From the NCBI GenBank assembly GCA_951406725.2, contig OX597826.1, forward strand, positions 27,032,001-27,096,000: DNA of 64,000 nt. Reading direction: 5' to 3'. Positions within the stretch are counted from its first letter, which is position 1; every line of letters starts with the position of its first letter. The stretch is from Octopus vulgaris. Taxonomy: Eukaryota. Positions 3,402-62,730 of the stretch are shown here, in pieces. The notes under the pieces are model-generated. The model did not search any database and was not told the origin of the DNA. It saw only the letters and a program-made list of their open reading frames with translations. Position numbers and translations under genes: made by a program.

Positions 3402-3563
3402 GGCAGGGTACTGGCTGTGTGGTGAGTAGCTTGCTTCTCACCCACATGGTTCCGGGGTCAGTCCCACTGCGTGGCAACTTGGGCTAGTGTCTTCTGTTAT
3501 AATCTCGGGTCGACCAAAGCTTTGTGAGTGGATTTGGTAGAGGGAAACTGAAAGAAGCCCGTC

Positions 3564-3624: not shown

Positions 3625-4080
3625 AGTGTATTCATCTATCAAGCCATCTCTCTCTCTATATATATTAATATAGATAGATAGCTACATACACACACATATA
3701 CACACAGACATACACACAAACGCACACACACATATATGCAGAGCGAAACTGAGATAGACAGAGTCCGAGAATGAAAAATAACGTAAACCTATATTCCAAC
3801 CTAAATCGATAATACTAAAAATCAATACAGGATCGAATACATTATATATATATATATGTCTGTATGGAGTCTAGTCACTAATTAAGGCCGCAACACCTCA
3901 CAAAGGTTCATTTGTTTCCGCACCCAGTTTTATAACTTTTCATAGGTGAGATATATTACCACCTCGAGAAGGATGAAACTATGTATCGAAACACATGTAG
4001 CTTTGTAGGGTGTTAATGCGTTAATTACTGTATGTGTGCGTGTCTGTGTATGTATGTTTGTGTGCTTGTGTGTGTAAGTT

Positions 4081-4254: not shown

Positions 4255-7008
<2,754 letters not shown>

Positions 7009-7325: not shown

Positions 7326-7539
7326 AATATATACACACACATAGACACACACACATTCGAACACAAACACACGCACGCACATGTATATATCCACATATGA
7401 ATTATTTTATATATGTTTGTTTTTATTTCTTCCTTGTGATATTCAAATTTTTATCATGTGACTACAAACAAAGATGGTACACCACGTTAAATGCAAATCT
7501 TACATTTTATGTTATAGAATACATAAAGGATTATATACA

Positions 7540-7690
7540 GGCGCAGAAGTGGTTACGTGGTATGTAGCTTGCTTCCCAACCTCATGGCTTCGGGTTCAGT
7601 CTCACTGCGTGGAATCTTCGACCACTGTTTTCTACTATAGCTGCAGGCTGACCAAAACCTGGAGAGTGGATTTGATAGACGGAAACTGAA
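7540..7690 (+). mobile_element. SINE family A (5' half)
   Basis: GGCGCAGAAGTGGTTACGTGG...GGGTTCAGTCTCACTGCGTGG...GACGGAAACTGAA. Confidence 0.8.
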
Positions 7691-8082
7691 ACAAATCGAC
7701 CTTAGGACTATTCTTTGTAAGCTAAGTATATATTCTATCAGTCTTTTGCTGAACCGCCAAGTTACGGGAAAGTATACACACCACCATCGATTGTGAAGCG
7801 ATGGTGGGGGACAAACACAGACACAAATACATACATGCATTCATATACACACACATACACACATATATATATATATATACATACATACACACACACATAT
7901 ATATATATATATATGTATGTATATACGATGGGATTTTTTCAGTTTTTGTCTGCCAAATCCACTCACAAGATCGGCCCGAGGCCATAGTAGACGACACTTT
8001 CTCAAGGTCCCACAAAGTGGAACTGAACCTGGAACCATGTAGTTGGGAATCATGCTTCTTAGCACACAGCCACTCCTGCGCC
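7691..8082 (-). mobile_element. SINE family A, near full length with internal (CA)/(TA) tract
   Basis: Reverse complement of the family A consensus; ends CACAGCCACTCCTGCGCC on the + strand. Confidence 0.85.
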
Positions 8083-8572: not shown

Positions 8573-11500
8573 TGTTTCTTTATTAGCCACACAGGGCTGC
8601 ACACAGACGGGACATATTACAAAGTAGAGCTTTTCTTTTTGGGAGTAAAAAAAGTGGGGTAGGTTTTATATCAAAAGGGATCGTAAAAGGGAAAGAAGAA
8701 AAAAAGAATAAAGGTAAAAGAAATAAAAGAAAAGAAAAAAGAAAAAAGAAGGAAAAAGAAAAAAGGGAAAAAAAGATCAATAGGGATCGTGTATTACAGT
8801 GTAAGGTGTAAAGAGGGAAGCAGATAATGTTTATCCGTGGGAAGAAAAGCCTACGGTAACCTCGGTCAATATTGTTACATGTTTCCACATTTGTTTGCAA
8901 GTGGGTAACCCTCTGTTTTCAATTTCTGGGTTCATAGGATTATGCTCAAGGTGGCTTCGTCATTAATACGTGCCATTCTTGCTACATTCACCCATCTCTT
9001 TTTAAAACATTCGCTAGATAAAACTTGCCTCTCTACTCTCATTTTCCTTTTCAAGTGATACTCGAAGAAGTTGATGAGAGATTGACCAGAGAGGAAAGTG
9101 TCTCTAATCCTTTCAGACGCGTCCACCAGATACATTCTTTCGCCATAGCCACAAGGATGATGAAAATAGCTCTTCCTTCCCGTTTGAAGGAAGGAGGCGT
9201 GAGAATATTGACGATAGACTCAGCTGATAAACCGACTCGTCCCACACGTGACAGCAGTTGTTCGACATAAGCCCACAGGTCGGAAATTGTTGGACACTGC
9301 ACGATTGCGTGCAGAACGGTTTTGTCGCTCTGACCGCATCTCGGGCAGGTCGTCCCTGTGTTTCTCGGGCCGTGTCTGTAGAGCTTATCCCGAACGGGTA
9401 GCGCTTCTAGGTAGCACTGCCAGGCCAGGGATCTCTCCCAGTTGTCCATGGGTCCTGCCCCGAAAGTCGTCCTGAACAGGCGGGTCAGGTATTCTTCATC
9501 GACATCCAGGTTCGCCCCGAGCTCGTCGTCGTACCTCCTCTCCAGTAATCCCCTATAGAATGCTTGGGTTGTGTTGGAGTCACTCAAGGTCGACCCGGGA
9601 CGGCAGAGTTGTTTGAGAGCAACGCGACACTCGCGGTGCCATTCGCCCTTCCTCGGCCTCTTTTTGATCCACGACTGCAGTTCAGTCATGGAGACGAGTT
9701 GCGGGAAAGCGTGCCTCACAAACGGCGACCACACCTGTTCACCGTCGTCTACGTAGAGCCTGAGATGTCGCAGTCTCAGCGCGTGTCTGCGCATCATCAA
9801 CCACGGCATGCCCAGTCCTCCTTTTAACGGGTGTTTACAGCAAATGGATCGCCTGACCATCGGGACGCATCCTTTCCACAAGAAGCGAAAGAGAATGCGT
9901 TCTAGTTTGGTGATGGTAGGGCGGTAGTAGATGACGGACGTGATGTACGAATTCGCCACCTCCGCCCGACCATTTAGGGACACTTTCCTCTCGGCCCATT
10001 GCCGGGCGTAGTGACCACCCTGCTCGTTATCTCGTTCCAGTTCTTCTCCATTTGAGGTCCGGTCCAAACCAGACCCCAAGAAACTCGACCGGACCGTCGG
10101 TCCAGCGTCCCACGAAGGAGGCGCTGGTGGACGGCATGGGCTTGCTTCTCCAGGTACCGAGTCGCAAGCCCACTGATTTTTCCCGGTTGATTTTCGCTCC
10201 TGTCACCGCTTCGTAGACACTATGACGGTGACATCGTCCGCGTATGCAGACACGTTCGTCCCGCATCCCAGTTCTCGCGTGATGCCCCTCAGAGTTGCCA
10301 GCTTCCGCAATAATGGCTCGAGATTCAATACGTAGAGAAGCGATAAGAGGGGGCATCCCTGACGGACCGAACGTGCGATGTCGAAAGATCTCGATAGTTG
10401 TCCATTTACGCGAATTACTGAACGGATGCCCGTGTACAAAGCGGCTATCCAGCCGCGGACAACGGGACCGAAGCCAGCCGCTCTGAGGACTGCCTCCAAG
10501 TATCGATGGTCTACCCTATCGAAAGCTTTCGATTGATCCAAATTGATCAGCTCCCCATCCATGCCAGGTTCCTTAACTACCCTGTCTATGATGTAGTGCA
10601 TCAGGTGGAGGTTGTCATGGATGCTCCAGCCCGTCTCGGCGCACGTTTGCGCCTTGTCGACCAGTTTCTCGATGACAAGCGCCAACCTCTTGGCTAACAC
10701 CTTTGCCAAAATTTTCAAGTTTGCATCAAGCAGAGTGATGGGCCTAAAGTTATCTATTACATTCCCCTTGTTTAGATCTTTCTTCAGCAGTGTTACGGCT
10801 CCTCAGCTCACAAAACCAGGAATGCACCCGTTTTGCTGCCAGTTGCATTACACCGCTGCCAAGACGTCTCCAAACAAGTCTGGCATACAACTGTAAAGCT
10901 CGTAGTGTAGACCATCCAAACCAGGCGATTTGTCCCTCGAGCATTCTGCCATCACGTCCTGCACTTCCACCGCCGTGATGGCACCGTCGCAGCACTTTGC
11001 CTCTCTTGCCGAGAGTCGTGGTAGGCTGTGCAGGTAGGCACTGAAGTCCACCCTGCGTTCACGCTCGCCACTCGTCCCGTACAGTCGGGCAAAATGCTGT
11101 TGAAAGGCCTCACACATTTTACTTGGCTCGAGCAATTCGCGCCCCTCTTCATCTACCAGAGACCGAATGGTGGCTTTGTTGCCCTGTTGCGCCTCTGCCA
11201 CCTGGGCCTCTCTCTCGGCTCCAACACCTTCGTTCCTTAGAGCACGCATCCTAGCTCTGACAACACACCCTTCGTATTTGGTGTTGAAGTGCTGGTCGAG
11301 GGCCAACCTCGCCGCCAAAACGTCGGATGCGATGCCACTTCTAATTGCCTCTTCTAGCTTCTTAACTAGCTCACCCTCTACTCTATTTCTCTCTATGGCT
11401 AGTGCTTTGCTGTACCTAATCGCTTCTGCTTTTCCTGCTCTCTTGAGGGGAAACCACCATTTGTTGTTGACGATGGCTCCCGCCAAAGCCCTCTTTACTA

Positions 11501-11892
11501 GTGTGCAAATCCGGTCTCTGAAAACCTGTCTCGATGGGAAAGACGCGTTTAGTTTCCAGTATCCGGGACCCTGCCTATGTGTCTTACCTAACTCTAGCGT
11601 ACATGTCACAAGTTTGTGATCCGTGTAACTGACTATGTGGGATTGTGGACATCCTATGCTATCTCTATCTACTGTCCTACACCGTATCCTATCTAGATAC
11701 AATCTCGACGACCCGATGCGGTTGCTCCATCTCGTTGGCGCATTCGGGTGGTCTAGTTGGAACCTGTCAGACAGTTGAAAGCGTCTGAGCAGGTCTCTAA
11801 GGCATTTACATCCCCGTCTATTCCTATCTCTGCCCACGTAGTCCAAGGAAGCATTCCAATCCCCCACTAAGAGTAAAGGATGAGACGTTCCC

Positions 11893-11894
<2 letters not shown>
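8572..11894 (-). mobile_element. Tx1/L1-clade LINE, 5'-truncated ORF2 pseudogene (APE-RT-CCHC)
   Basis: LVGDWN, YLDRI, TDHK, GPGYWKLN (endonuclease); KSPGLDGL, RPITLL, KILAKVLAKRL, IHDNL, LDQSKAFDRVDH, SVRQGCPL, AYADDVTV (RT); CPRCGQSDKTVLHAIVQC (zinc knuckle). Split by frameshifts over ORFs 10848-12179, 10203-10718, 10027-10356 and 9051-10079. (GATA)n on both flanks. Confidence 0.95.
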
Positions 11895-11978
<84 letters not shown>

Positions 11979-11979
<1 letters not shown>

Positions 11980-12177
11980 CTTTCTTTATTGGCCACACAG
12001 GGCTGGACACAGAGGGGACAAATACAAATGTAGAGCTTTTCTTTTCGAAGATGGAAATGGAAAAGGAGAAAAGGGGAAACAAATGTAAAATTTCGATCAA
12101 AAGGTGATCGGAGAAAAAAAAATAAAAAAGAATTGTGTATTACAGAATGAAAATGTTTTTTCTTCAAAGTAACAAAC

Positions 12178-12179
<2 letters not shown>
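11979..12179 (-). mobile_element. 3'-terminal fragment of the Tx1-like LINE in (GATA)n
   Basis: TTTCTTTATTGGCCACACAGGGCTGGACACAGAGGGGACAAATAC matches the 8572 end; GATA tracts at 11895-11978 and 12180-12253. Confidence 0.85.
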
Positions 12180-12254
<75 letters not shown>

Positions 12255-12587: not shown

Positions 12588-12946
12588 ACCGCTTTTAGTC
12601 GAACAAATCAACCCCAGGAGTTATTCTTTGTATACCTAGCACTTATTCTATCGTTCACTTTTGACGAACCGCAAAGTTACGGGGACGTAAACATGTCAAC
12701 ATCAGTTGTCATGTGATGGTAGGGGGACAAACGCAGACATAAATACACACACATACACACACAAACACACATACAAAAACACACACACATATACGGCGGG
12801 CTTCTTTCAATTTCCGTCTACCAAATCCACTCACAATGCTTTGGTCAGCCCTTGGCTATAGTAGAAGACCCATTCTCAAAGTACGACGCAGAGGGACTGA
12901 ACCCGGAACCATGTGACTGGTAAGCAAGTTACTTGCCGCACAGCCA
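12588..12946 (-). mobile_element. SINE family A
   Basis: Matches the family A consensus, including the internal CA tract. Confidence 0.85.
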
Positions 12947-13460
12947 TCCATGTATGTAAATCTTTTGGGGAACTGGTTCTCGAAGTAACTTTAATGCTTT
13001 ACACAACATGTATATATTGCGCTGAAAGCTTAATTTCAATAGAAACATTCGAGTGCTACCCAGCTGCCCATGGGTCATCTCGTAACCGAAAAGTTCCAAT
13101 AATTACATGGTGTTATTTATAGATCTATATATACTTTGAGCACCCTAATGGAGTAATTCTTCGTTTTCTTGTATGTTTATGAACTCTGATGACGTCAACA
13201 CAAAACTGTACCTAAATTTATATCTATAACTTGTTTCCTGGTATGTACCTATACATCTATATCTAGCTATACCGTTTTTTCTTTCCCCCTGTCTCTCTCT
13301 CTCTCATATATATACATATCTGCGTGTGTGTATATATATATATATATGTGTGTGTATATGTATACATATATATATTTATTTATATGTATATATATGTATA
13401 TGCATATATATGTATATGTAGGCATATATATATATATATATATATACATATATATATGTG

Positions 13461-17743: not shown

Positions 17744-17772
17744 GTGTGTGTGTGTGTATGTTTGTATGTATA

Positions 17773-17938
17773 GGCCCATGTGTGGCTGTGCGGTAAGAAG
17801 CTAGTTTCCGAATGACATGGTTCCGGGTTCAGTCCCACTTCGTGACAACTTAGGCAAAAGGCTTCGACTATAGCCTCGGGCCAACCAAAGCTTTCTGAGT
17901 GGATTTGGTAGACGGAAACGGAAAGAAACCCGTCGTAT
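17773..17938 (+). mobile_element. SINE family A (5' half)
   Basis: GTGGCTGTGCGGTAAGAAGC...GGTTCCGGGTTCAGTCCCAC...CCCGTCGTA. Confidence 0.85.
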
Positions 17939-17969
17939 AGATACATACATACATTCATACATACATACA

Positions 17970-22766: not shown

Positions 22767-22890
22767 GACGTGAATATGTGGTAAGAAGCTTGCTTACCAA
22801 CAGCATGGTTTTGGGTTCAGTCACACTGCATGGCACCTCGGGCAAGTGTCTTTTACTATAGCCTCTGGCCGACCAAAGCCTTGTGAGTGA
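22767..22890 (+). mobile_element. SINE family A (5' part)
   Basis: GTGGTAAGAAGCTTGCTTACCAAC...GGCAAGTGTCTTTTACTATAGCC...GACCAAAGCCTTGTGAGTG. Confidence 0.8.
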
Positions 22891-23432
22891 ATAGTTAGAA
22901 AGTTCGCCTCGCAATTAGAAGTCTCGGTTTCGATCTCACTGCTTAGCTACCTGGACAAAAGTCTTTTACTATAGGCTCGGGTCAATAAAATGCTTATAAA
23001 AGACATCGTTAGTCGAAAACTGCCAAAAACACAGTGAGTGTAATTAAAAAGTGTCAAACACATTCTGCTTCAGATTACACTAATGCTTCAAAAAACAAAG
23101 GACCAATGGCCCTTCCCGAGCCTATGGATCATAAGACCGGTTTCCCCCGGATTCTGCGGCATATGTGGTCTCCCCGCTTTGGACAGGACGCCTCTCCGTA
23201 GTAGGGGACTGGAGCAATGCGAAACGAAGTGTTTTGCTCAACAACACACCGCACTATGCCACGCACCTCCACACATTAAGGCTACATCCGTCAGCAAAAT
23301 ACTCAGCCACATAAATGCTAATTCTGTGAGTGGAGGAGGCAGTTTAGTTCATTGAAGAACTAAACAAATATTGTCGAAAACTGTGAAGGTGTACTCTGTG
23401 TAGTCCACGCATGTGTGTATGAGAGTGTGCGT

Positions 23433-24963: not shown

Positions 24964-25244
24964 TTTCGTTTTTGGATTTGGTTTGGAAGATTCTTTATTT
25001 GAGTTCGTGTTTTGAAGCATATTCTATTGTGTCTGGGGAGAGTCAATTTCTTTTTGTGCCTTATAATTTAACATACACACCAGTAAAATTTCCTCATATT
25101 TCTTATTTTCCTAAAATTTGCGATGCGTTTTGCAACTTTTTCAATAGTCTTGACTCTGTCCTTTATTTACACTGCAGTGCAAATTTTACCGGTGAATGTG
25201 TTAAATTATAAGGCACAAAAAGAAAATGACTCTCCCCAGTCACA
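24964..25244. repeat. Fold-back element with about 64-bp inverted arms (25028-25091 / 25181-25244) and a degenerate U3:A8 hammerhead in the spacer
   Basis: Arms TGTGTCTGGGGAGAGTCA...AAAATTT / AAATTTTACC...TGACTCTCCCCAGTCACA. Minus strand 25111-25147 reads cta TTGAAAA a gttgc-aaaac-gcatc GCAA at TT tag. Confidence 0.7.
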
Positions 25245-25277
25245 TATATATAAACACATATATATATACACATATAT

Positions 25278-25456: not shown

Positions 25457-25458
25457 AT

Positions 25459-25523
<65 letters not shown>

Positions 25524-25533
25524 CATACATACA

Positions 25534-25577
<44 letters not shown>

Positions 25578-25587
25578 TGTATGTATG

Positions 25588-25676
<89 letters not shown>

Positions 25677-25718
25677 ATACATACATATGTAGAAGGTTGA
25701 AAAGAAAGGTACGGGTTG

Positions 25719-26102
25719 TTATATATGGAAAAAAATCTAGGTAGGAAATGCTAAAATAATTTTATAAAAAACATTTCAGTAACGGTTTCAGTCATTGAGA
25801 CTTTTTCAACTGTAAGTACGGAAAACAATTAAATTTTGGAAGCATTAAAAGAAAATTTTTTTTCGAGGCCGAACCGACAAGAGTAAACAAGAGAGACCGA
25901 GACAGAGAGAAACAAGGAAAATGCCCCTTGTATTTGAATGCTATACAAATATTCTTTAAAAAAATACTTTCTTTAAATTTTTCCAAAATTTAATTGTTTT
26001 CCATACTTCTGGTTGAAAAATTCTCAATGACTGCAACCGTTACTGAAATGTGATTTATAAAATTATTTTAGCATTTTCTTCCTTGATTTTCCCCATATAT
26101 AA
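25719..26102. repeat. Fold-back element (arms about 25719-25842 / 25979-26102), Penelope-like unit plus inverted partial copy
   Basis: Arms are imperfect reverse complements; spacer plus right arm recur as a single inverted unit at 43590-43818. Confidence 0.8.
25777..25812 (-). ncRNA. Hammerhead ribozyme-like motif, U3:A8 covariant core
   Basis: cag TTGAAAA agtc-tcaat-gact GAAA ccgt TA ctg. Confidence 0.7.
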
Positions 26103-26196
26103 TATCATATATATATATACACACATACATACATACATGCATACATACATATATATATATGCATACATACATGCATACATACATACATACATACAC

Positions 26197-26239
<43 letters not shown>

Positions 26240-26836
26240 CTCATATCGAGCAAACTTTGATAGGCAGTCTCATCACCATATTTGTCACTTTCGGTGCAAG
26301 ATAGAGTCTTAGTAGTAAAACAACCTGAGCAATTATACAACATGAGTATTACATCATTTCCATTGACGAAATCTCTTTGTATATTCTCTATATCCATATC
26401 CATTATTATGACCGGGTTCCAATCCGGGCCGCAGCAACACAATCCACCCGTCACACTTCTCGGGCCATCATCATTGCCTCGAACTCATCACATACACTCG
26501 AGGCCAGCGTCTGCAGTCAAGTTTTTGACGTGAGTATTATGACGTTTATCGTCTCATTACATCACCACGAAGTGGGTTCCACATGACTCGTTTCCATGCT
26601 TCCAGTTCACTATGGAGGACATTTATATAGACATGTAGTGGTATTTAGAAAAAAATATGTATGAAGTCCGACACAAGACTGCTCTAATCTAAATCGTATA
26701 TTGCACGGTAACGAATTAACGTAAAAGAAGTTATTTTTGAAATATTTCTTCGTGGATATATAAATGGGACATTGTTTAAACAGCGAAGAAATATCACATG
26801 AAACATATCTAAAAGAACGCTTATTAACTCACTCTT

Positions 26837-26895
<59 letters not shown>

Positions 26896-27212
26896 TACGC
26901 GCGCATACACACATATCTTTTTTCTTTTTCTTGTTTCGATCCTTCGGTTACGGCCAAACTGCAGCATCGGCCCTGAAGGATTTTAGTCGAACCAAACGAC
27001 TATTTTCTTTTAGGCCTCAAACTCATATATTTTAATAATTAGATGACAACTGCTGCCGTTTAGAAGTCTTCGGCGCAAAGTGTGTCTAAGCGTTCTATTT
27101 CTTCATTGCCTTACTAGGGGAATGCTGTGACCTCGGTCCTTTTATGCTCGTGCAAACAGGGTAACAGTCCCCCTCGGAGTCCTAGGACTCGAGACAGTAA
27201 TGACCAGCGGTT

Positions 27213-27550
27213 GATAATGATGATGATGATGAGGAGGAGGAGGAGGAGGAGGAAGAAGAAGAGTGGGAGTACAATGACGATGATGATGAAGAAGAGGAGG
27301 AAGCAGGGGAGGAGGAGACGGAGGAGGAGGAGGAGGAGGAAGCAGGGGAGGACAATGATGATGATGACGACGACAACGATGATGATGGTGACAATGACGA
27401 CGATGACAACGATGACAGCGACGATGACGACGACGACGATGACGACAACGGCGATGAAAACAACGACGACGACAATAATGATCACGATCATGATCGTAAT
27501 AATGACCACGAAAACAACGATGAGGATGATGATGACTACGACGATGATGA
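27213..27550. repeat. Degenerate trinucleotide repeat (GAT/GAG/GAC)n
   Basis: Direct reading; explains the poly-R/M/T and poly-S ORFs. Confidence 0.9.
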
Positions 27551-28438
27551 GCCCCTAAATGTGTGGCCTTATGAAAATGCTAAAATTTATATCTCGGTAT
27601 ATTGATAAATAGATAATTAGATAGATGGCAACTATGGAAGATCTATTAGAATTATTTATCTACTTAGGGTTATATTTATATTTATTATATTTATATCTTT
27701 CTTGTTCTCGTTTGAAGAGACCACCCTTTATAGTTATATTTCACTGCCATGCTAGAGACGATTCGACCGGAAGAGGAAGTAACATTCATTTATAAACAAC
27801 CTAGCTTTCTCTTCTTCTTCTTCTGTGCTGACAGTGTGCTGTTTAGGCATTAAGACAGCTAGACCAGATTAGCGTCAGTGGGTACTGGATATTTAGTACA
27901 CCTAGAAAGAAATAATAGGCATGTGTGTTGGCTATTAGTGCATGTGTGGGGGTGCTGTGCGTGCCCATGTATATGTAAGCGTGTTTGATTCAGTAACCAT
28001 ATGTACATGTATGTGAGCTGTTAATATACTGTGTTTATCTAAGTAATCGCTTTGCCATGCACACATTCATTTCGTTCCGTTTGCAGACTGAAAACTTACA
28101 CAGAAGGGACGAAAATATGGAAACCAAATACACACACACATTCATACACATACAAACACGCATGCACGCACACACACATACACAGACACAAACACGCATG
28201 CACAACCAGTGTTGATTACAAAACAAGGAACAGAAGTGTGTTTCTTAATTATATATTAGCGGCGAATGAGGAAATGAAACTGAGAGACACGTATTAAGGA
28301 CAACTGAGCAACATAAACATATATATATATGTACATATATACACACATACATATGGATAGAGAGAGATAGACAGACAGACAGACGGACGGACGGACAGAT
28401 AGATAGATAGGTAGATAGAATAATAGACACATGGATGG

Positions 28439-29975: not shown

Positions 29976-30032
29976 TGAGATGGACTTGCATAGCAGGTGA
30001 CTTGAGCTCGTGTGCTGAAACAAACAATTGCA

Positions 30033-30320
30033 GCTTGGAATATGTTTCTAAGCCATTCAAGAGCACAAAAATAAAACCCCTTAGATTCACTTCAACATTT
30101 CAATTTAATTCGTGTCAAAATATTTTCGTCGCTTTGAAACCGCAACTTGTTCACTGACAAAACTTCTTGTTGCATCGAAGTTTTGTCAGTGAACAGGTCG
30201 CGGTTCCAAAGCGACGAAAATATTTTGACACAAATTAAATTGAAATGTTGAAGTGAATCTGACAGTTTTTTTGTCTTTTGTGTGTGTTCTTAAATGGCTT
30301 ATAAACATTTCCCAAACTTC
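30033..30320. repeat. Palindromic element (arms about 135 bp, 10-nt loop at 30167-30176) with a hammerhead fold on both strands
   Basis: AGATTCACTTCAACATTTCAATTTAATT...CTGACAAAACTTC / GAAGTTTTGTCAG...AATTAAATTGAAATGTTGAAGTGAATCT. Confidence 0.9.
30184..30230 (+). ncRNA. Hammerhead ribozyme-like motif, G3:C8 covariant core
   Basis: tgtca GTGAACA g gtcgc-ggttccaaa-gcgac GAAA atat TT tgaca; mirror copy on the minus strand at about 30113-30159. Confidence 0.72.
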
Positions 30321-30824
30321 AATAATAATAATATTAATGCGTTAACAGTCACATTTACACACAGAGACAAAGATAAACTTGTATCAAGAACAATCTTAGT
30401 ATGAGGTTCTGAAGTATGTGGTTACAATCCTTATTACTTTCAAACATATCGCTACCCCGATGTCATCTAAAAGGGTAGAGTTTATAAGCTCAGGCATTAA
30501 TGTTAGCGGTGGATGAAAATTTTAAGTTTCTAACCGAGGAAATTTAGAATACACTCTCGCTCTGAGGTTGATGCGTCAGCTGTACTCTGGTGCCTATGGT
30601 TCAGTAAACGTACACATACATACACACGTACATACACACATACATACACACATACATGCAAACACATACGCTTACTCACATAGTTATGTTGATAAATCTT
30701 TATGTTGCATACATTTGTGGAAATCCTCTCTCTCTCTCTCACTTCCTCTCTTTCTCGCATTCCCCCTTCCTTTCTCTCTCTCGCCCTATCTCTTTCTATA
30801 TCTATATTTTTTCTCTCTGTCTCG

Positions 30825-31744: not shown

Positions 31745-32106
31745 TTCTTTATTTCTTTTACCTGTTTCAGTCAGTTGGCTGCGGCTATACTGAAGCACCG
31801 CGTAAGCTTAGCACTTATTCTATCGGTTTCCTTTAGCCGAACCACCACTAAGTGACGGGGGACGTAGACACAGCAACATCGGTTGTCAAGCGATGGTGGG
31901 GGATAAACACCGACACACACACACACATACATACATATATGTACGATGGGCTTGTTTTAGTTTCCGTCTACCAAATCCATTCACAAGTCTTTGGTCGACC
32001 TGAGTCTATTGTAGAATGCATTTCCCCAAGGTGTCACGCAGTGGGACTGAACCCGAAACCATGTAGTTGTTAAGCAAGCTACTTACCACACAGCCACACC
32101 TGCGCC
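31745..32106 (-). mobile_element. SINE family A, near full length
   Basis: 3' end TTTCAGTCAGTTGGCTGCGGC...; head CACAGCCACACCTGCGCC. Confidence 0.85.
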
Positions 32107-32199
32107 TATTGTCACAAATATTATTGATTTCAGAAAGATGAGTCGTGAAAGCAATCCTGGTGGAATTCAATCTGATAACACAGAAAGATATAACACAAT

Positions 32200-32580
32200 G
32201 AACAATTCTTTTTTTTCTTTTGGAAGCTGGTGCCAAAAGGAAATAATAGTAAAGTCCCTTTTGGTCAAGAATGACCATGAGATTGCACCAAGAAAGTTTC
32301 CCTCTGAGGTACTGGTCGGGGCAAGATTGTTAGAGTAAGACCAGCAATCGCCCATGCATACCAACCTCCCTTCTCCACGCCACTGATATTATACAAGGGA
32401 CAGGCAAAGGCCGATACAGCATGGCACAAGTTACATCACAACTCTTTTCTACAGCCGAGTGAACTGGAGCAATGTGAAATAGAGTATCTTGCTCAAGAAC
32501 ACAACACAGCCCGGTCCGGGAATCGAACTCACAACTTTACGATTGTGAACCTGATGTTCTAATGACTGAGCCATGCACCT
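32200..32580 (-). mobile_element. tRNA-derived SINE family C-related copy
   Basis: Reverse complement reads GGTGCATGGCTCAGTC...GTGAGTTCGATTCCCGGACC...GTGTTCTTGAGCAAGATACTCTATTTCACATTGCTCCAGTTCACTCGGCTG. Confidence 0.75.
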
Positions 32581-32699
32581 TGGCTCCTCGAAGGAAATAC
32601 AGCTATAAATAATTGCATGTAGATATTAGGTCGAACAAGATAGGAAAATTCGAAAACTACCTGTAGAACTCGAACCGGCATCATATGAACACATGAGGT

Positions 32700-33410
32700 A
32701 AAAAAATGTCGCTTTGCAACCACCTGTTTTCCGGTTCACTCCCGCTGCGTGGCATCTTGGGTAAGTGTTTTCTATTATACAAGGTCCGAATGCGATCAAC
32801 ACCCTGTGATTGAATTTGGTATGCGGAAACTGTATAGAGGCCCGTCAAATATATTTGGGTGTATTAGTTTGTCCTTTTATTCTTTGTTTCAGTTATTTGA
32901 TTGCTGCCTTTATTCGAAGATATCAGCCAGAAGAATCTTTGTAAGCCTAGGACTAATTCTTTCGGTCTCTTTTGCCGAACCACTAAGTTACGGAGACGTA
33001 TACACACTTGACAACATTAGTTGTCAAGTGACACAAATACATACACACACACACACACATATGTATATATATCTATATTACTAATAAGAAAATAGAGAAA
33101 CAAATTGGTTTATCAGCTTTAAGATATTAGAATGTTTTACTTATTTATTTAACAAAACGAGAACCATAATAACATATATATACATTAAAATTCAATACAT
33201 ATAAGATAAGAATACAATTTAAGAAAAACCTTAATATATATATATATATATATGATGGGCTTCATTCAGTTTCCATCTACCAAATCCACTTACAAGGCTT
33301 TTGTCAGCCCAAGGCTGTTGTAGAAGACAATTGTCCAAGTTACCACGCAGTAGACTGAACCGAAACCATGTTTTGGGAAGCACGCTTTCTATCACAAAGC
33401 CACTCCAGCG
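32700..33410. mobile_element. Cluster of decayed SINE A fragments (+ 32700-32845; - 32870-33040; - 33255-33410)
   Basis: Partial matches to the family A head and tail. Confidence 0.65.
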
Positions 33411-38132: not shown

Positions 38133-38904
38133 CAAATAGCTTGGCATCCACTATAAAGCACTGTATAAGCTATAATTGTACGAAAGATAGGGTATAAATA
38201 CAATCGGCATAAATTATGCATACGTACACAGATAACATCTTCGTTCGACTCCATTCTTTCATTTATTCATATAAAAAACACACAAATTTCCACACAAGAA
38301 CCCGGAGTTTCTACCCTTGACAGGTCGCTTCAACAGTGTTTTCCGACGTGAATTTGCTACCCAGGCATCGGTTAAACGAATTTTCCATGCTAGGATAATT
38401 TATTCACCTACTTAAATATATATATATATATGGCCACAGCTCGTGAGCTGAAACTAGAATCAATCATATATATGCATATATATATATATACATCTGCATA
38501 CACACACTTATATATACATACATATACATATTTAGATATGTATACATATGTTTATATATGTACACACACACACACATATATATTGTTTAAAATCCACATG
38601 GCATGGGATTTTTTCTCTTCTTTGTAATTTTAAACCTATCCAACCTTCAAATTGTGCATACAGATTTCGGGTATAGAGCTGGCCTAATCGTTAGAGCACC
38701 AGGATATAAAGAGGGTTTACAGTAAATTTGCCGCCTTTTCTCGTTCTAATGTCTAATCCTGCTGAGGTCAATGAAGAAAGTAACAGTCTTGTACTCGACT
38801 TGATTTTGTCGTCTAAACTTCACTTAAAATTGCAGTTCGTGTGTCTATATTAACCCTTTCACTAAATTTTACGGTTATTCTAGTAATAATGTAGAATTTT
38901 ATTT

Positions 38905-39278
38905 ATTTCTTTCAGTCTTTTGACTGTGGCCATGCTGGAGCACCGCCTTCAGTCGAGCAAATCGACCCCAGGACTTATTCTTTGTAAGCCTAGTACTTAT
39001 TCTATCGGTCTGTTTTGCCGAACCGCTGAGTTACGGGGATGTAAACACACCAGCATCGGTTGTCAAGCGATGTTGGGGAGACAAACACAGACACACACAT
39101 ACATATATAAATATACATATATACGACGGGCTTCTTTCAGTTTCCGTCTACCAAATCCACTCACAATGCTTTTGTTGGCCCGAGGCTATAGTAGAAGACA
39201 CTTGCCCAAGGTGCCATGCAGTGGGACTGAACCCGACCCATGTGGTTGGTAAGCAAGCGACTTAGCACACAGCCACGT
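38905..39278 (-). mobile_element. SINE family A, full length, with LINE-like 3' end
   Basis: Head, CA/TA tract and 3' end GGCGGTGCTCCAGCATGGCCACAGTCAAAAGACTGAAAG. Confidence 0.9.
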
Positions 39279-39534
39279 CTACCAAAATATAGAATTGGTA
39301 TTTTCTGCAAGTTAACTTGCCTCAAGTAGTCAGACACATCTCCACAAAAGCGAGATAGTTGTGTAATAATGCTTTCCGCAGTTAAAGATAACGAAATTTT
39401 TAGTGAATAAATCAGATTACCTCAGTAAAAGATAAAACAAAAATTATTTACGCTTGTAATGAAACAATAGGTCGTCCTTCAAAAGTAAATCAATTTTTCG
39501 ATTGTACTTTCGATTGTACTTCTCTTCCTATACA

Positions 39535-39601
<67 letters not shown>

Positions 39602-39602
<1 letters not shown>

Positions 39603-39958
39603 GATAAATCTCAGAGTGAGTTATAAACAGTAGCGGTAACACATCGTGACGCATATTTGCCATTTGAATATAGCTAACCCCTAAGGGTGGATGCTACTGT
39701 AGTTTGTAGCCCCAGGAAGATATCTCCTGAAGATACCAACCATGATTGTCACACGCTGATGAAAGGTAAACACCTTGGAACTCGGGTCCGTGTGTATCAT
39801 GAGTTGAAGACGGGGAGGATGACTCCCCTTCACAAATACTGAGAGGACACAGATAGTGTGTCTATAGCCAGCTGGAGGAGATATCTTCCTGGAGCTACAA
39901 ACTACAGTAGCATCCACCCTTAGGGGTTAGCCATATTCAAATGGCAAATATGCGTCAT
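39602..39958. repeat. Fold-back element in (TA)n with about 82-bp inverted arms (39647-39728 / 39876-39957)
   Basis: TGACGCATATTTGCCATTTGAATA...GAAGATATCTCCT / AGGAGATATCTTCC...CAAATATGCGTCA. Confidence 0.88.
39737..39806 (+). ncRNA. Type I hammerhead ribozyme (extended helix I; GAAA mutated to GGAA)
   Basis: caac catgat tgt cacacg CTGATGA aaggt-aaac-acctt GGAA ctcggg TC cgtgtg t atcatg a gttg. Confidence 0.75.
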
Positions 39959-40696: not shown

Positions 40697-41445
40697 TTTT
40701 TTTTTTCTCTAGATTCAGCTCAGAGCTGCGGCCACGCTGATGCGCCGCCGTTTTGTGCTACACTGTTATTGCGAAGAACCTCAACTAATATGTGGCACTT
40801 GGTGAAGAATGGAGTTTGATATAGCTACTCTCATTTGCACCACTTGCCGTGAGGTAGGTTCATCTGGGACTCTCGACAGGAAGATGTCCAGCTTTGATTT
40901 AAAAACCGCTACATCTACTTTGTGCAAGTTCCTCAGACTCTTTGGGAGAATATTAAAAAGCTGTGGGCCCTTGAAACCCAGGCTGTTGCAGAAGCTGGTC
41001 CTGAAGCGTGATGGCATTGCTGGGATCTTTGGCACTATGCAGTGTCGTCCCGTTCTAGCATTGGTGTAGCTTACAATGCCAAAATTTGGCACAATTCCTT
41101 CCAAGATCTTCCAGACATATATTACTGCATACCTCTCCCGTCTTCTCTCCAGGGAGTAGAGTCTTAGCTGTTTCAACCTTTCCCAGTAGCTGAGCTGTTA
41201 CAAAGAGATGATCTTCTTTGTGAATGTTCTCTGAATTGCTTCAAGGTCCACTGTTAATTTTACACTGGTGGTTGACCATAGCTGTGAGCAGTAATCCAGG
41301 CGGCTGAGAACGAATGTCCGCCAGAGGACCATCATAGTTTCCTTATCTCTGGTTCTGAATGTTCTTAGGATCCACCCGGCCAGTTGTCTGCACTTTGTCG
41401 CCATCCTGGTAATGTGCATTTGGAAAAAGGTATTATCACCCATTA
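40697..41445 (-). mobile_element. CR1/L2-group LINE, 5'-truncated second copy
   Basis: Near-identical to 4255-4990 (LSRLDYCSQLW, LRLYSLERRRER); same 3' hairpin; (TA)n flanks. Confidence 0.93.
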
Positions 41446-43580: not shown

Positions 43581-43589
43581 TTTTTTTAT

Positions 43590-43818
43590 ATATAGAAAAA
43601 AAAAGTCAGGGCAGAAAATGCTAAAATGATTTTATAAAAAAAATATAAGTACCGGTTTCGTTCATTAAGACTTTTTCAACTGTAAGTATAGAAAACAATT
43701 AAATTTTGGAAAAATTAACTGTAACGTATTTCAAAGGAATATTTGCATAGTATTCAAATACAAGGGGCATTTTCCTAGTTTCTGCCTGTCTCTGTCTCTC
43801 TTGTTTACTCTTGTGGGT
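43590..43818 (-). mobile_element. Single-unit copy of the 25719 element with U3:A8 hammerhead motif (43647-43682)
   Basis: Minus strand: cag TTGAAAA agtc-ttaat-gaac GAAA ccgg TA ctt; collinear with 25872-26102. Confidence 0.75.
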
Positions 43819-43823
43819 TATAT

Positions 43824-45583: not shown

Positions 45584-45947
<364 letters not shown>

Positions 45948-50390: not shown

Positions 50391-50541
50391 ACATGAATTT
50401 ACCTGATGAAAACTTTCGGTGTCTAGCGATTGTGTCGACTAGCATTCGTAGAATATCTAATATTTCAGCGGAAAGAGTAATGTTCAAAAGAGTTGTGAAC
50501 TATGAAGACGAAACATTAGTAAAGACTGTCTTTGGTGAGAA
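50391..50541 (+). repeat. 150-bp segment duplicated in inverted orientation at 52902-53053
   Basis: Base-by-base reading shows only one substitution and one 1-nt indel between the copies. Confidence 0.9.
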
Positions 50542-57444: not shown

Positions 57445-57965
57445 TAAATTAATAATAAATATTAGGGAATAAATCCAAACTTACAGGGCAAAATCAGATT
57501 TAGGATTGAATCCAATTTTATAGTAACATATTATATTATATTAAATTAGAGATAAAACCACTATTACGCAAGTCATACAATGAAAAACTTAAGCCAATAC
57601 ATAAGATTATTTAATTTACATTATTTAAATATATAACAAAATTATTAAAAAATATAATTAATATAACACTACGATCGTTTCATGGCTGTTAATTTCTTTA
57701 AATTTTCGAGTTACAGTCATTCATCAGGTGGTTTAAATATTTAACTTGATTAAACCTCGCCAAGTTAAATATTTAAACCACCTGATGAATGACTGTAACT
57801 CGAAAATTTAAAGAAATTAACAGCCATGAAACGATCGTAGTGTTATATTAATTATATTTTTTTAATAATTTTGTTATATATTTAAATAATATAAATTAAA
57901 TAATCTTATGTATTGGCTTAAGTTTTTCATTGTATGATTTGCCTAATAGTGGTTTTATCTCTAAC

Positions 57966-57973
<8 letters not shown>
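57445..57973. repeat. Large palindromic element in (TA)n (arms 57537-57748 / 57761-57973, 12-nt loop) with a hammerhead on both strands
   Basis: About 212-bp near-perfect inverted arms plus a one-sided extension at 57445-57536. Confidence 0.92.
57779..57842 (+). ncRNA. Type I hammerhead ribozyme, canonical core
   Basis: cac CTGATGA atgactgt-(23 nt)-acagccat GAAA cgatcg TA gtg; identical copy on the minus strand at 57667-57730. Confidence 0.8.
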
Positions 57974-59987: not shown

Positions 59988-60075
59988 CGTTTGCTGCACC
60001 TAGGTTTCGCAATAGGTCACCCATCTAAGTACTAACTAGGCTCGACGGTGCTTTCAACGTGATAGGACCGTAAGT
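59988..60075 (-). pseudogene. 5S rRNA pseudogene with internal deletion
   Basis: Reverse complement ACTTACGGTCCTATCACGTTGAAAGCACCG|TCGAGCCTAGTTAGTACTTAGATGGGTGACCTATTGCGAAACCTAGGTGC matches the 5' and 3' parts of metazoan 5S rRNA, with the middle missing. Confidence 0.78.
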
Positions 60076-60620
60076 AAATATAATATGTGACAATTATTCG
60101 GTAGCCATGACAAAAGCGGTAGCATTTTTTGCGATGGCCCGATAAGTGAAGAGATGCCGGCGCGTGTTTCCGCCCCGATATCCAAAACTCAGAGTTTTAT
60201 CATGGCTACCGAATAATTGCCACATTATATTTACAGATAAATTACTCTATTTACATAATATCGAGTTCTCTTTTATTCTTTTGTTGTCTTGCGATTTCTA
60301 TCAATATATATATATTAGACGCTGCTACCTTAATTTAGGACGAAATAATAAAACACATTTCTGAAAGCTAGATAAAGATTAGCAAGCTGTATTCGGGATG
60401 TAGAATAAAAGTAAATATGTTTTTAGTAAAGGCACAAGACCAATATATTTCTTAGGAGTGAAGTTGGTGATGGAGGAAATCAATGCTATAGATCCCAGCA
60501 ATCACTTGATGAATATTATATTTTATCGACCTCCAACGGATGAGAGACTAGTATTTCACCAAGTATTTTACCACGACCAAATTTGAACTCAGAAAGGTAA
60601 TTGCTGGAGTGAATACCTTA

Positions 60621-60793
60621 GGCGCAGGAGTGGCTACGTGGTAAGTACCTTGCTTACCAACCACATGGTTCCGGATACAGTCCCACTGCGTGGCACTTGG
60701 GCAAGTGTCTTCTACTTTAGGCTCGGGCCGACCAAAGCCTTTCAAGTGGATTAGGTAGACGGAAACTGAAAAAAGCACGTCGTATATATATAT

Positions 60794-60875
<82 letters not shown>

Positions 60876-61412
60876 TCTTTTATTTTTTCTCTTTTACTTG
60901 TTTCAGTCATTTGACTGCGACCATGCTGGAGCGCCACCTTTAATCGAGCAACTCGACCCTGGGACTTATTCTTTTGTAAGCCCAGTACTTATTCTATCGG
61001 TCTCTTTTGCCGAACCGCTAAGTAACGGGGATATAAACACACCAGCATCGGTTGTCAAGCAATGCTAGGGGATCAAACACAGACACACAAACACACACAC
61101 GCATATATATACATATATACGACGGGCTTCTTTCAGTTTCTGTCTACCAAATCCACTCATGTGGTTGGTAAACAAGCTACTTACCACACAGCCACTCCTG
61201 CGATGCTTGTGCGTCTGTGTTTGTTCTCCTAACATCGCTTGACAACCGATATTGGTGTGTTAAGACCCCGTAAATTAGTAGTTCAGCAAACGCGACCGAT
61301 AGAATAAATACAAGGCTTACAAAGAATAAGTCCTGGGATCGATTTGTTCGACTACAGACGGTACTCCAGTATGGCCGCAGTCAAACAACTGAAGCAAATT
61401 AAAGAATAAAAG
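60621..61412. mobile_element. SINE family A cluster: + 60621-60785, - 60880-61202, + 3' half 61205-61412
   Basis: Matches to the family A head and tail in alternating orientation. Confidence 0.85.
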
Positions 61413-61665
61413 AAAATGCGTTTATGAACTTAATCACACACGGAAGAAGAAAATGAATGAAAAAGAGGTTAAATATAGAAACTAAACAAAAATAATTCAT
61501 GCATATGCAAACATACGTATATATACATGTATACATTTATATGTCAGTATATATATATATATATATTTATATTATATTGAGGGTACTACTATTCGTAGAT
61601 ACCAACACGCTAAGAGGGACCAATGCGGTCAAAACTACTAAAAATAAACAAAATTTTACCATATA

Positions 61666-62190: not shown

Positions 62191-62326
62191 TCGTCTTATC
62201 AATAAGTATTCGAATAAGTAACGAAATAAGTGCACACAGAGTGAAGCCTCTTGCCACAGATTTACGTTAATGTCTACTCTCTCTGCATGAGCACTGAGTT
62301 TTAACGTTTTAGCTCACTTCCGCTGT

Positions 62327-62730
62327 TTAGGGCTGGACTTGAAAGGAAGGTGTGTAACGTGTGATCGTCGCACGCACATCTGCGACGCTTTTCTCAGTCC
62401 TGTTGTTTACGGGTCTCTCAGAACTTCCTTCAACATCGACATTTTCCCAGCCATCTTGGAAACGTTTAAACCACATGTACACTTGTAAGCGGCTCATACA
62501 CTCCTCTCCATACACTTTTTGGAACTTTGCGTAGGCCTCTGAGCAGGTATCGCTTTCTCTGTCATGGTTAATGCGACAATCACACGCTACACACGTTACT
62601 TCCAAAGAGCGAAAGTAAGCTAGAACGTTACAACTGAGTGCGCATGCACAGCAGAGTTCAATGTTTAATATTTGCCTACCGGCTTCACTCAACCTGCTTT
62701 AGCATCGTTACTATGGCAATAGTCCATATA
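62327..62730 (-). mobile_element. Mariner transposase 5' fragment (N-terminal HTH)
   Basis: SEAYAKFQKVYGEECMSRLQVYMWFKRFQDGWENVDVEGSSERP. End CGTTACTATGGCAATAG resembles the sub-terminal sequence of the 51176 element. Confidence 0.8.

Follow-up and report, generated by a model that had tools for sequence, protein, structure and literature searches.

Head-to-head hammerhead palindromes in Octopus vulgaris are probably ORF-less terminal insertions of Penelope-like elements

Results

We analysed 64,000 nt of the Octopus vulgaris genome (GCA_951406725.2, contig OX597826.1, forward-strand positions 27,032,001–27,096,000; referred to hereafter as the window and numbered from its first nucleotide). 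A palindromic element at 25.7 kb and a solo copy at 43.6 kb are likely to be ORF-less terminal (pLTR) insertions of one Penelope-like (PLE) family, the other palindromes of the window being the same product from other families. The product itself is directly visible, in the form of a 234-nt unit carrying a U3:A8 hammerhead that occurs alone, and the same unit joined 5′-to-5′ to a shorter inverted copy, at TA-rich targets. Inverted pLTRs of Penelope were the reading advanced in the original prediction, and this fits every architectural feature that we tested; since the 300 longest of 419 window ORFs included no coding parent, we infer Penelope membership from anatomy.

The window has a GC content of 35% and extremely dense microsatellites. 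Unmasked self-BLAST was swamped by these, and 166 microsatellite runs (11,431 of 64,000 nt) were masked before self-comparison. Published properties of PLEs and hammerheads are given below as they stand in the accessible portions of the papers cited.

A full-length unit and its shorter inverted copy

The element at 25.7 kb begins with a left arm (25719–25868, minus strand), an inverted and 5′-shortened copy of the unit whose homology is clear to 25863 and probable to 25868, and continues on the plus strand with a full-length unit of ~234 nt (25869–26102, spacer plus right arm; pLTR-sized), whose homology to the solo begins at 25872. The inverted arms (25719–25863 and 25959–26102) are identical at 126 of 144 aligned columns (BLAST E = 4e-43) and lie on either side of a 95-nt spacer, which comparison with the solo assigns to one arm, giving an asymmetry on the inner side of the palindrome. 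The locus is thus, as had been proposed, a unit plus an inverted copy of the unit's end. The two copies meet head-to-head (5′-5′) at a junction (25860–25873) with a 4-bp hairpin, within which only 3 nt (25869–25871) are unassignable to either copy. Microsatellite flanks both sides, (TA)n/(CA)n at 25457–25690 on the left and (TA)n/(CATA)n at 26107–26240 on the right, and the left arm is preceded by a one-sided extension of 28 nt (25691–25718, minus strand) that comes after a TATATA run, a possible target; this extension is a candidate tail but may be host flank.

The solo, un-inverted unit (43586–43819, minus strand) adjoins the end of a dispersed SINE-like repeat, and aligns with 25872–26102 at 194 of 229 identical columns (43819–43586; BLAST E = 7e-60). 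Its equivalence to the spacer and right arm, claimed originally for 43590–43818, therefore holds, but the boundary moves to 43586, or to 43595 if a 9-nt repeat is the target. That direct repeat (43586–43594/43818–43826) is a candidate target-site duplication (TSD) of low complexity, with 20 occurrences in the unmasked sequence; TSDs at loci other than the solo are hidden within microsatellite. Self-comparison of the 64-kb window returned no inverted partner for the solo, and a profile of the three copies (two arms and solo) found no fourth copy in the window at E < 1.

Over the 149 ungapped columns common to the three copies, private differences number 6 in the left arm, 12 in the right arm and 20 in the solo, with a further 3 columns at which all differ. 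Left and right arms differ from one another at 21 of 149 columns, and from the solo at 29 and 35. Judged by their sequence, the copies at 25.7 and 43.6 kb are old and decayed, and today they are probably without activity.

Common termini of the two full units

Both full units start at the same 5′ position to within 0–5 nt (homology from 25872 and 43819, respectively) and end at the same 3′ base. The 5′ end of the solo meets microsatellite at 43819, the counterpart of 25872, a base 3 nt away from where the inverted arm probably ends on its inner side. Were a 3-kb parent truncated at random, such a common 5′ end would seldom be expected, but the sample is n = 2. Fixed ends are also what one would expect of a discrete non-autonomous retroelement (a retrozyme- or SINE-like PLE derivative) mobilised by PLE enzymes, for which no coding parent containing the unit would exist, and animal retrozymes have been argued to be non-autonomous PLE derivatives (bioRxiv 10.64898/2026.07.22.740005). 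We regard this as unlikely: the window contains no head-to-tail tandem copies of the focal unit (at two loci only), and the focal hammerhead, having a helix I of 3 bp, belongs with the minimal PLE motifs and not with the canonical retrozyme motifs, in which helix I has 6 bp. Metazoan non-LTR retrozymes (PMC7229834, bioRxiv 10.64898/2026.07.22.740005) do share with our elements a short, non-coding, PLE-dependent nature and a type I hammerhead, but are described as head-to-tail tandems with canonical hammerheads, whereas the elements here are solos and head-to-head pairs.

Upstream of the hammerhead, the solo carries an intron-acceptor-like stretch (43680–43709, minus strand) consisting of a branch-like motif, a pyrimidine tract and a CAG whose last base immediately precedes U3. 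It is intact also at 25810–25839 (minus strand) and decayed in the right arm (intact in two of three copies); the same post hoc criteria are satisfied at 17 of 97,252 positions, and the donor is uncertain. The 5′ end lies 140–144 nt from N3 in the focal units, against 7–36 nt in five other families. In Drosophila virilis Penelope, an intron begins 46 nt past the transcription start (PMC2377424) and ends at helix I (PMC4209133), placing an acceptor beside helix I with a start-to-N3 distance of ~126 nt (inferred, assuming the same numbering in both papers). Unlike that pLTR, the acceptor-like AG here abuts U3 directly. By this analogy, the template of the focal units may plausibly have had a fixed end at a pLTR promoter and have kept its intron.

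Hammerheads of the focal family

A minimal type I hammerhead with a U3:A8 core, predicted to be self-cleaving, fits the left arm and the solo. The best preserved is that of the left arm (25777–25812, minus strand), with a 3-bp helix I, a 4-bp helix II, a short helix III and a predicted cut after UA. In the solo (43646–43682, minus strand), helix III is perfectly self-complementary (dimer type; one change in the 25.7-kb arms), and the third pair of helix I is broken, leaving two. The single motif originally ascribed to both loci accordingly holds for left arm and solo but not for the right arm (26010–26045, plus strand), in which the core is broken (GCAA in place of GAAA) and the helices are weakened.

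Individually, these motifs carry modest weight. Against 150 dinucleotide shuffles per locus, the hammerhead at 25.7 kb does not reach significance (p = 0.11) and the solo gives p = 0.013; folding z-scores lend the former no support (−0.02; focal set −0.02, −1.10 and +1.54, best other loci −1.95 and −1.61). A degenerate motif pattern matches the window three times (25778–25809, minus; 43648–43679, minus; 26013–26044, plus) and none of 100 shuffles, a count that shows only the absence of further copies since the pattern was built from these same copies. Rfam gave no hammerhead at gathering score in the window (only a 5S rRNA relic), nor at E ≤ 10 among the 150 matches listed of 552. As expected, none of 185,579 prokaryotic genomes contains the exact motif.

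The ensemble evidence is strong by comparison. A first version of the hammerhead descriptor made 7 matches in the window against 0–2 in 10 shuffles, one of the seven being a spurious right-arm fold at 25.7 kb. The final descriptor was tuned after these first matches had been inspected, so that its enrichment figures are optimistic: all nine matches scoring at least 9 (of 21 in total in the masked window) fall inside six of seven named loci, which together take up 2,358 nt of the 52,569 left unmasked (4.5%), whereas 12 shuffled windows average 0.9 matches at that score. None of six control regions (inverted repeats or repeat pairs) reaches p < 0.05 (p 0.27–1.0). The arm hammerheads point outward in 5/5 palindromes, which makes the junctions head-to-head (5′-to-5′).

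Six further palindromes of unrelated families

The original prediction listed five other loci as showing the same asymmetry. They do not form a U3:A8 family: they are unrelated in sequence and mixed in core, which is C3:G8 in three (39.8, 45.8 and 57.8 kb), G3:C8 in the one at 30.2 kb and a decayed U3:A8 in the one at 25.1 kb. One-sided extension is present in all five, but on the outer side of the arms and not on the inner side as at 25.7 kb. Self-BLAST and profile comparison within the window revealed no homology across families. Two weak AT-rich cross-family alignments were rejected as chance (p 0.01–0.02 among ~100 comparisons), and a likeness between the extensions at 25.0 and 30.0 kb failed comparison and was likewise set aside.

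The palindrome at 24964–25248 (minus strand) pairs a unit (25180–25025) with a decayed U3:A8 hammerhead (N3 at 25144, p = 0.08) to an inverted short copy (25181–25248), its 61-nt outer extension sitting on the longer copy. At 29976–30323, within (AAT)n, both arms carry G3:C8 cores (N3 at 30154, minus, and 30189, plus; p = 0.007) with helices I and II of 5 bp each, around a 10-nt centre and with a 51-nt outer extension on the left; this well-formed motif, with a bulged base after A9, is the top-scoring one of the window. A young family in (TA)n at 39602–39957 (plus strand) has arms identical at 80 of 82 positions, a unit at 39729–39957 and a C3:G8 hammerhead (p = 0.007) with a 6-bp helix I and one core change; its 45-nt outer extension sits on the shorter inverted copy. 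The hammerhead (39738–39800, plus) also has an internal loop and a closing stem, and is nearer to the canonical retrozyme type than to minimal PLE motifs. Two more young families in (TA)n have C3:G8 cores in both arms: 45705–45910, with a 4-nt centre and a ~62-nt outer extension on the right (p = 0.007), and 57450–57966, with a long helix II, a 12-nt centre and an outer extension of at most 96 nt on the left (p = 0.033). Sub-threshold Rfam miRNA matches fall on the 45.7- and 57.7-kb palindromes. A seventh family, absent from the original prediction, is represented by an old palindrome at 3876–4030 (~70% arm identity) with a decayed, outward-pointing U3:A8-like hammerhead (p = 0.013 for the right arm, the left arm being homologous by alignment only).

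Outer extensions of 61, 51, 45, 62 and 96 nt thus lie between one arm and the microsatellite in all five listed loci, and we read them as putative tails from this position, with one copy available per non-focal family. Inner and outer asymmetry coexist at 25.0 and 39.6 kb; centres are only 4–12 nt at 30.0, 45.7 and 57.4 kb. If the tail were the start of an ORF, an ATG frame open through the extension would be expected; such a frame occurs only at 39.6 kb and is absent from the focal family, and at 25.0 and 30.0 kb short frames begin within the extension. TA- or AAT-type repeats are found at both outer ends of 7/7 loci examined (at 30.3 and 43.6 kb one of the two is short), a test of AT-repeat targeting that is weakened by the density of microsatellites in the window.

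Inverted arms embedded in (TA)n could also denote a MITE or foldback DNA transposon with TA microsatellites as its target, in which hammerhead matches would be incidental; TA-targeting Mutator-like elements exist (PMC4486113), and the focal hammerhead alone falls short of significance. The loci themselves make this very improbable. The refuting case of copies that all possess identical fixed TIRs fails, as the solo has no TIR, outer arm ends are unequal in 5/5 other loci, and the hammerheads are both concentrated in these loci and polarised outward, being absent from a mariner-like relic (62.2–62.7 kb) and from a 152-bp inverted pair (50.4/52.9 kb). The palindromes have no similarity to the mariner-like relics of the window.

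Other features of the window

The mariner-like relic (62195–62725; HTH_48, E = 5e-08), which served as a control, has decayed inverted ends between (TA)n runs. The inverted pair at 50391–50541/52902–53053 (152 bp, 98.7% identical, 2.4 kb apart, outside microsatellites) has no Pfam match between its repeats and is possibly a young TIR element. The region 59988–60310 holds an internally deleted 5S rRNA relic and, immediately after it, a 42-bp inverted pair (60074–60115/60195–60234) that has no hammerhead fit and is extended on one side as far as a short TA run, in which the extension ends.

Two decayed LINE-like elements lie on the minus strand, at 4255–6760 (with a second, 740-bp 3′ fragment at 40704–41443, 95% identity) and at 9054–12254 (fragments of APE-type endonuclease, RT and zf-RVT); an Argonauta hians protein (71% identity) is the closest named relative of one LINE RT of the window. 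A dispersed short repeat of ~360–400 nt, many of whose copies are broken at a TA run inside them, recurs at 3412–3562, 7532–8080, 12588–12952, 17770–17939, 22767–22899, 31748–33410, 38902–39280 and 60619–61415, and presumably resembles an octopus tRNA-derived SINE. A weak Pfam match to CDC37_M (27997–28212, plus; E = 5e-04, below cut-off) could mark a host exon, and the palindromes might then lie in introns. At 27118–27600, long open frames of acidic trinucleotide repeats (poly-Asp/Glu on the plus strand) have no Pfam match.

Coding capacity and the source clade

The search for a parent with a Penelope ORF, which the original prediction had recommended, gave no GIY-YIG domain among the longest 300 of 419 non-microsatellite ORFs of the window, the other 119 being of 45–53 aa. 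RT matches are confined to the two LINE-like relics, distant from the palindromes. A 39–41-aa peptide from the 5′ part of the unit has no protein matches, and a likeness to the PLE post-thumb linker motif was dropped as protein searches came back empty. A short-motif search of the PMC8557442 supplement produced only chance matches inside ORFs among the matches listed.

An ORF is retained in none of the seven palindromes of the window, three very young ones included. Its loss could be accounted for by collapse of a full insertion (an inverted pLTR followed by pLTR-ORF-pLTR) through recombination between direct pLTRs. Full elements of that layout are reported, with solo pLTRs ascribed to recombination or deletion (PMC3846280), and collapse would predict the 25.7-kb arrangement, in which a full-length unit stands next to a shorter inverted one. 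We nevertheless hold it to be improbable, given PLE origin, in view of the uniform lack of an ORF; further, pLTRs of tandem insertions are variably 5′-truncated (PMC2377424), so that two independent collapses need not have a common 5′ end. Collapse would in any case explain the missing ORF and not the inversion, and is compatible with either of the priming routes discussed below.

Thirty recently active Penelope families are reported in Octopus vulgaris (PMC13282606). Octopus Naiads target (TA)n and are described as without canonical hammerheads (PMC8557442), which makes the C-terminal-EN clade the likelier source of these elements.

Relation to known systems

The architecture (inverted pLTR, tail and (TA)n targeting) and the U3:A8 core are already published in other animals. 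In Adineta, pLTRs of 193–218 bp are accompanied by a shorter adjacent inverted pLTR, an optional tail on one of them, an 8–10-bp TSD and solo pLTRs, and head-to-head polarity is the most frequent for PLEs (PMC3846280); an inverted, 5′-truncated copy, a tail at one end only and a (TA)n bias are likewise reported (PMC8557442). The elements here resemble canonical EN+ PLEs (Penelope/Poseidon, Neptune and Hydra clades, for example Adineta vaga Pen2a; PMC3846280, PMC8557442) in the ~200-nt terminal unit, the shorter inverted 5′ copy, the head-to-head arrangement, the one-end extension, AT-rich or microsatellite targets, candidate 9-nt TSD and solos. They differ from them in having no ORF between the repeats, an ORF being needed for assignment to clade, and in that the extensions (45–96 nt) are longer than the published tails of 30–40 nt.

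The U3-A8 hammerhead variant has ~1,300 reported matches, including opposite-strand pairs 100–700 bp apart (PMC4209133), and a PLE-linked Schistosoma motif has the same UUGAAAA+A core (PMC4209133 supplement). These minimal hammerheads of Schistosoma Cercyon are like ours in their type I fold, UUGAAAA core, short helix I, opposite-strand pairing and a palindromic helix III fit for cleavage as a dimer, but belong to another sequence family and host, and helix II here is only 4 bp. A natural G3:C8 variant, as at 30.2 kb, is not among the motifs in the Fig. S3 text of PMC4209133; an engineered C3G/G8C double mutant is partly active (PMC11167929). Anolis Poseidon PAc, studied in vitro (PMC11167929), resembles the present elements in ends 63–201 nt downstream of the hammerhead, two 3′ ends and AT-rich targets. 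It cuts and extends both strands, although the accessible text of that study does not derive head-to-head products from it, and the families here have no known enzyme. We found no literature description of these octopod hammerhead palindromes; Repbase/Dfam, subscription papers and the supplements of PMC13282606 and bioRxiv may contain the families.

Discussion

The original prediction held that the focal loci show how such palindromes arise. This was too strong, in that two loci reveal the product and not the mechanism, and the formation of PLE inverted repeats and tails is itself called unresolved in PMC8557442. Biochemistry does constrain the possibilities: a PLE protein studied in purified form, and modelled as a dimer, nicks AT-rich DNA and both cuts and extends the two strands. 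Its initiation takes place within the RNA, at two adjacent sites, the interval between which constitutes the tail, with no requirement for hammerhead cleavage (PMC11167929).

Given PLE origin, we tentatively favour priming from both ends of the target, at a probability approaching even. A GIY-YIG/RT protein supplied in trans would nick AT-rich DNA, as in known PLE biology, and target-primed reverse transcription would begin within the RNA, using either of two neighbouring sites downstream of the hammerhead; alternative start sites would yield ends with or without a tail. Both target strands would be nicked, each priming its own cDNA. One cDNA would reach a fixed 5′ template end (probably where transcription starts at the pLTR promoter, with the intron unspliced), the other would stop early, and the two 3′ ends would be joined. 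Joining of two unequal cDNAs at their 3′ ends would leave the spacer asymmetry inside and the tail asymmetry outside, and a solo would form where only one end is primed.

The best discriminating datum is the 39.6-kb locus, at which near-identical arms (80/82) each have sequence missing from the other: the short arm has 45 nt missing from the long copy, and the long copy has 147 nt missing from the short arm, such that neither can simply have been copied from the other. This bears on the somewhat unlikely alternative, likewise within a PLE origin, that the inverted copy arises by self-priming, the cDNA folding back on a junction hairpin and being copied back, with the endonuclease trimming one tail during resolution; the 45 nt of the 39.6-kb short arm would then call for an extra trimming step. 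Palindromes at the junctions led to a fold-back proposal for Adineta Penelope (PMC3846280), and the tail has been ascribed to EN-mediated resolution (PMC8557442). Near-identity of the young arms speaks for it, and the greater closeness of the 25.7-kb arms to each other than to the solo fits it equally well. The junction hairpins (5 bp at 25.0 kb, 4 bp at 25.7 kb and 5 bp at 39.6 kb) could be its footprint, but they barely exceed background: among 3,000 random positions, hairpins of at least 4 bp occur at 32% and of at least 5 bp at 11%, and a Fisher combination made by hand gives p of approximately 0.08 for junctions picked by eye.

Returning to two-ended priming, a more specific and more doubtful proposal, which we put a little below self-priming in likelihood, is that the dominant PLE product in octopods is a “strong-stop”-like pLTR from initiation near the transcript 5′ end. 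The two strands would be primed separately, tail and 5′ length assorting independently, and the longer arm would stop exactly at the transcription start with the intron unspliced. If this is true, seven palindromes and one solo from seven unrelated families in 64 kb would extrapolate, from this single window, to ~100 per Mb, and the genome would keep a natural record of very many such events. Head-to-head products that are short, ORF-less and in part young could, in such quantity, test rival mechanisms by counting, and they are readily mistaken in annotation for MITEs or miRNA hairpins. The record would discriminate between two-ended priming and self-priming, and includes natural C3:G8, U3:A8 and G3:C8 cores.
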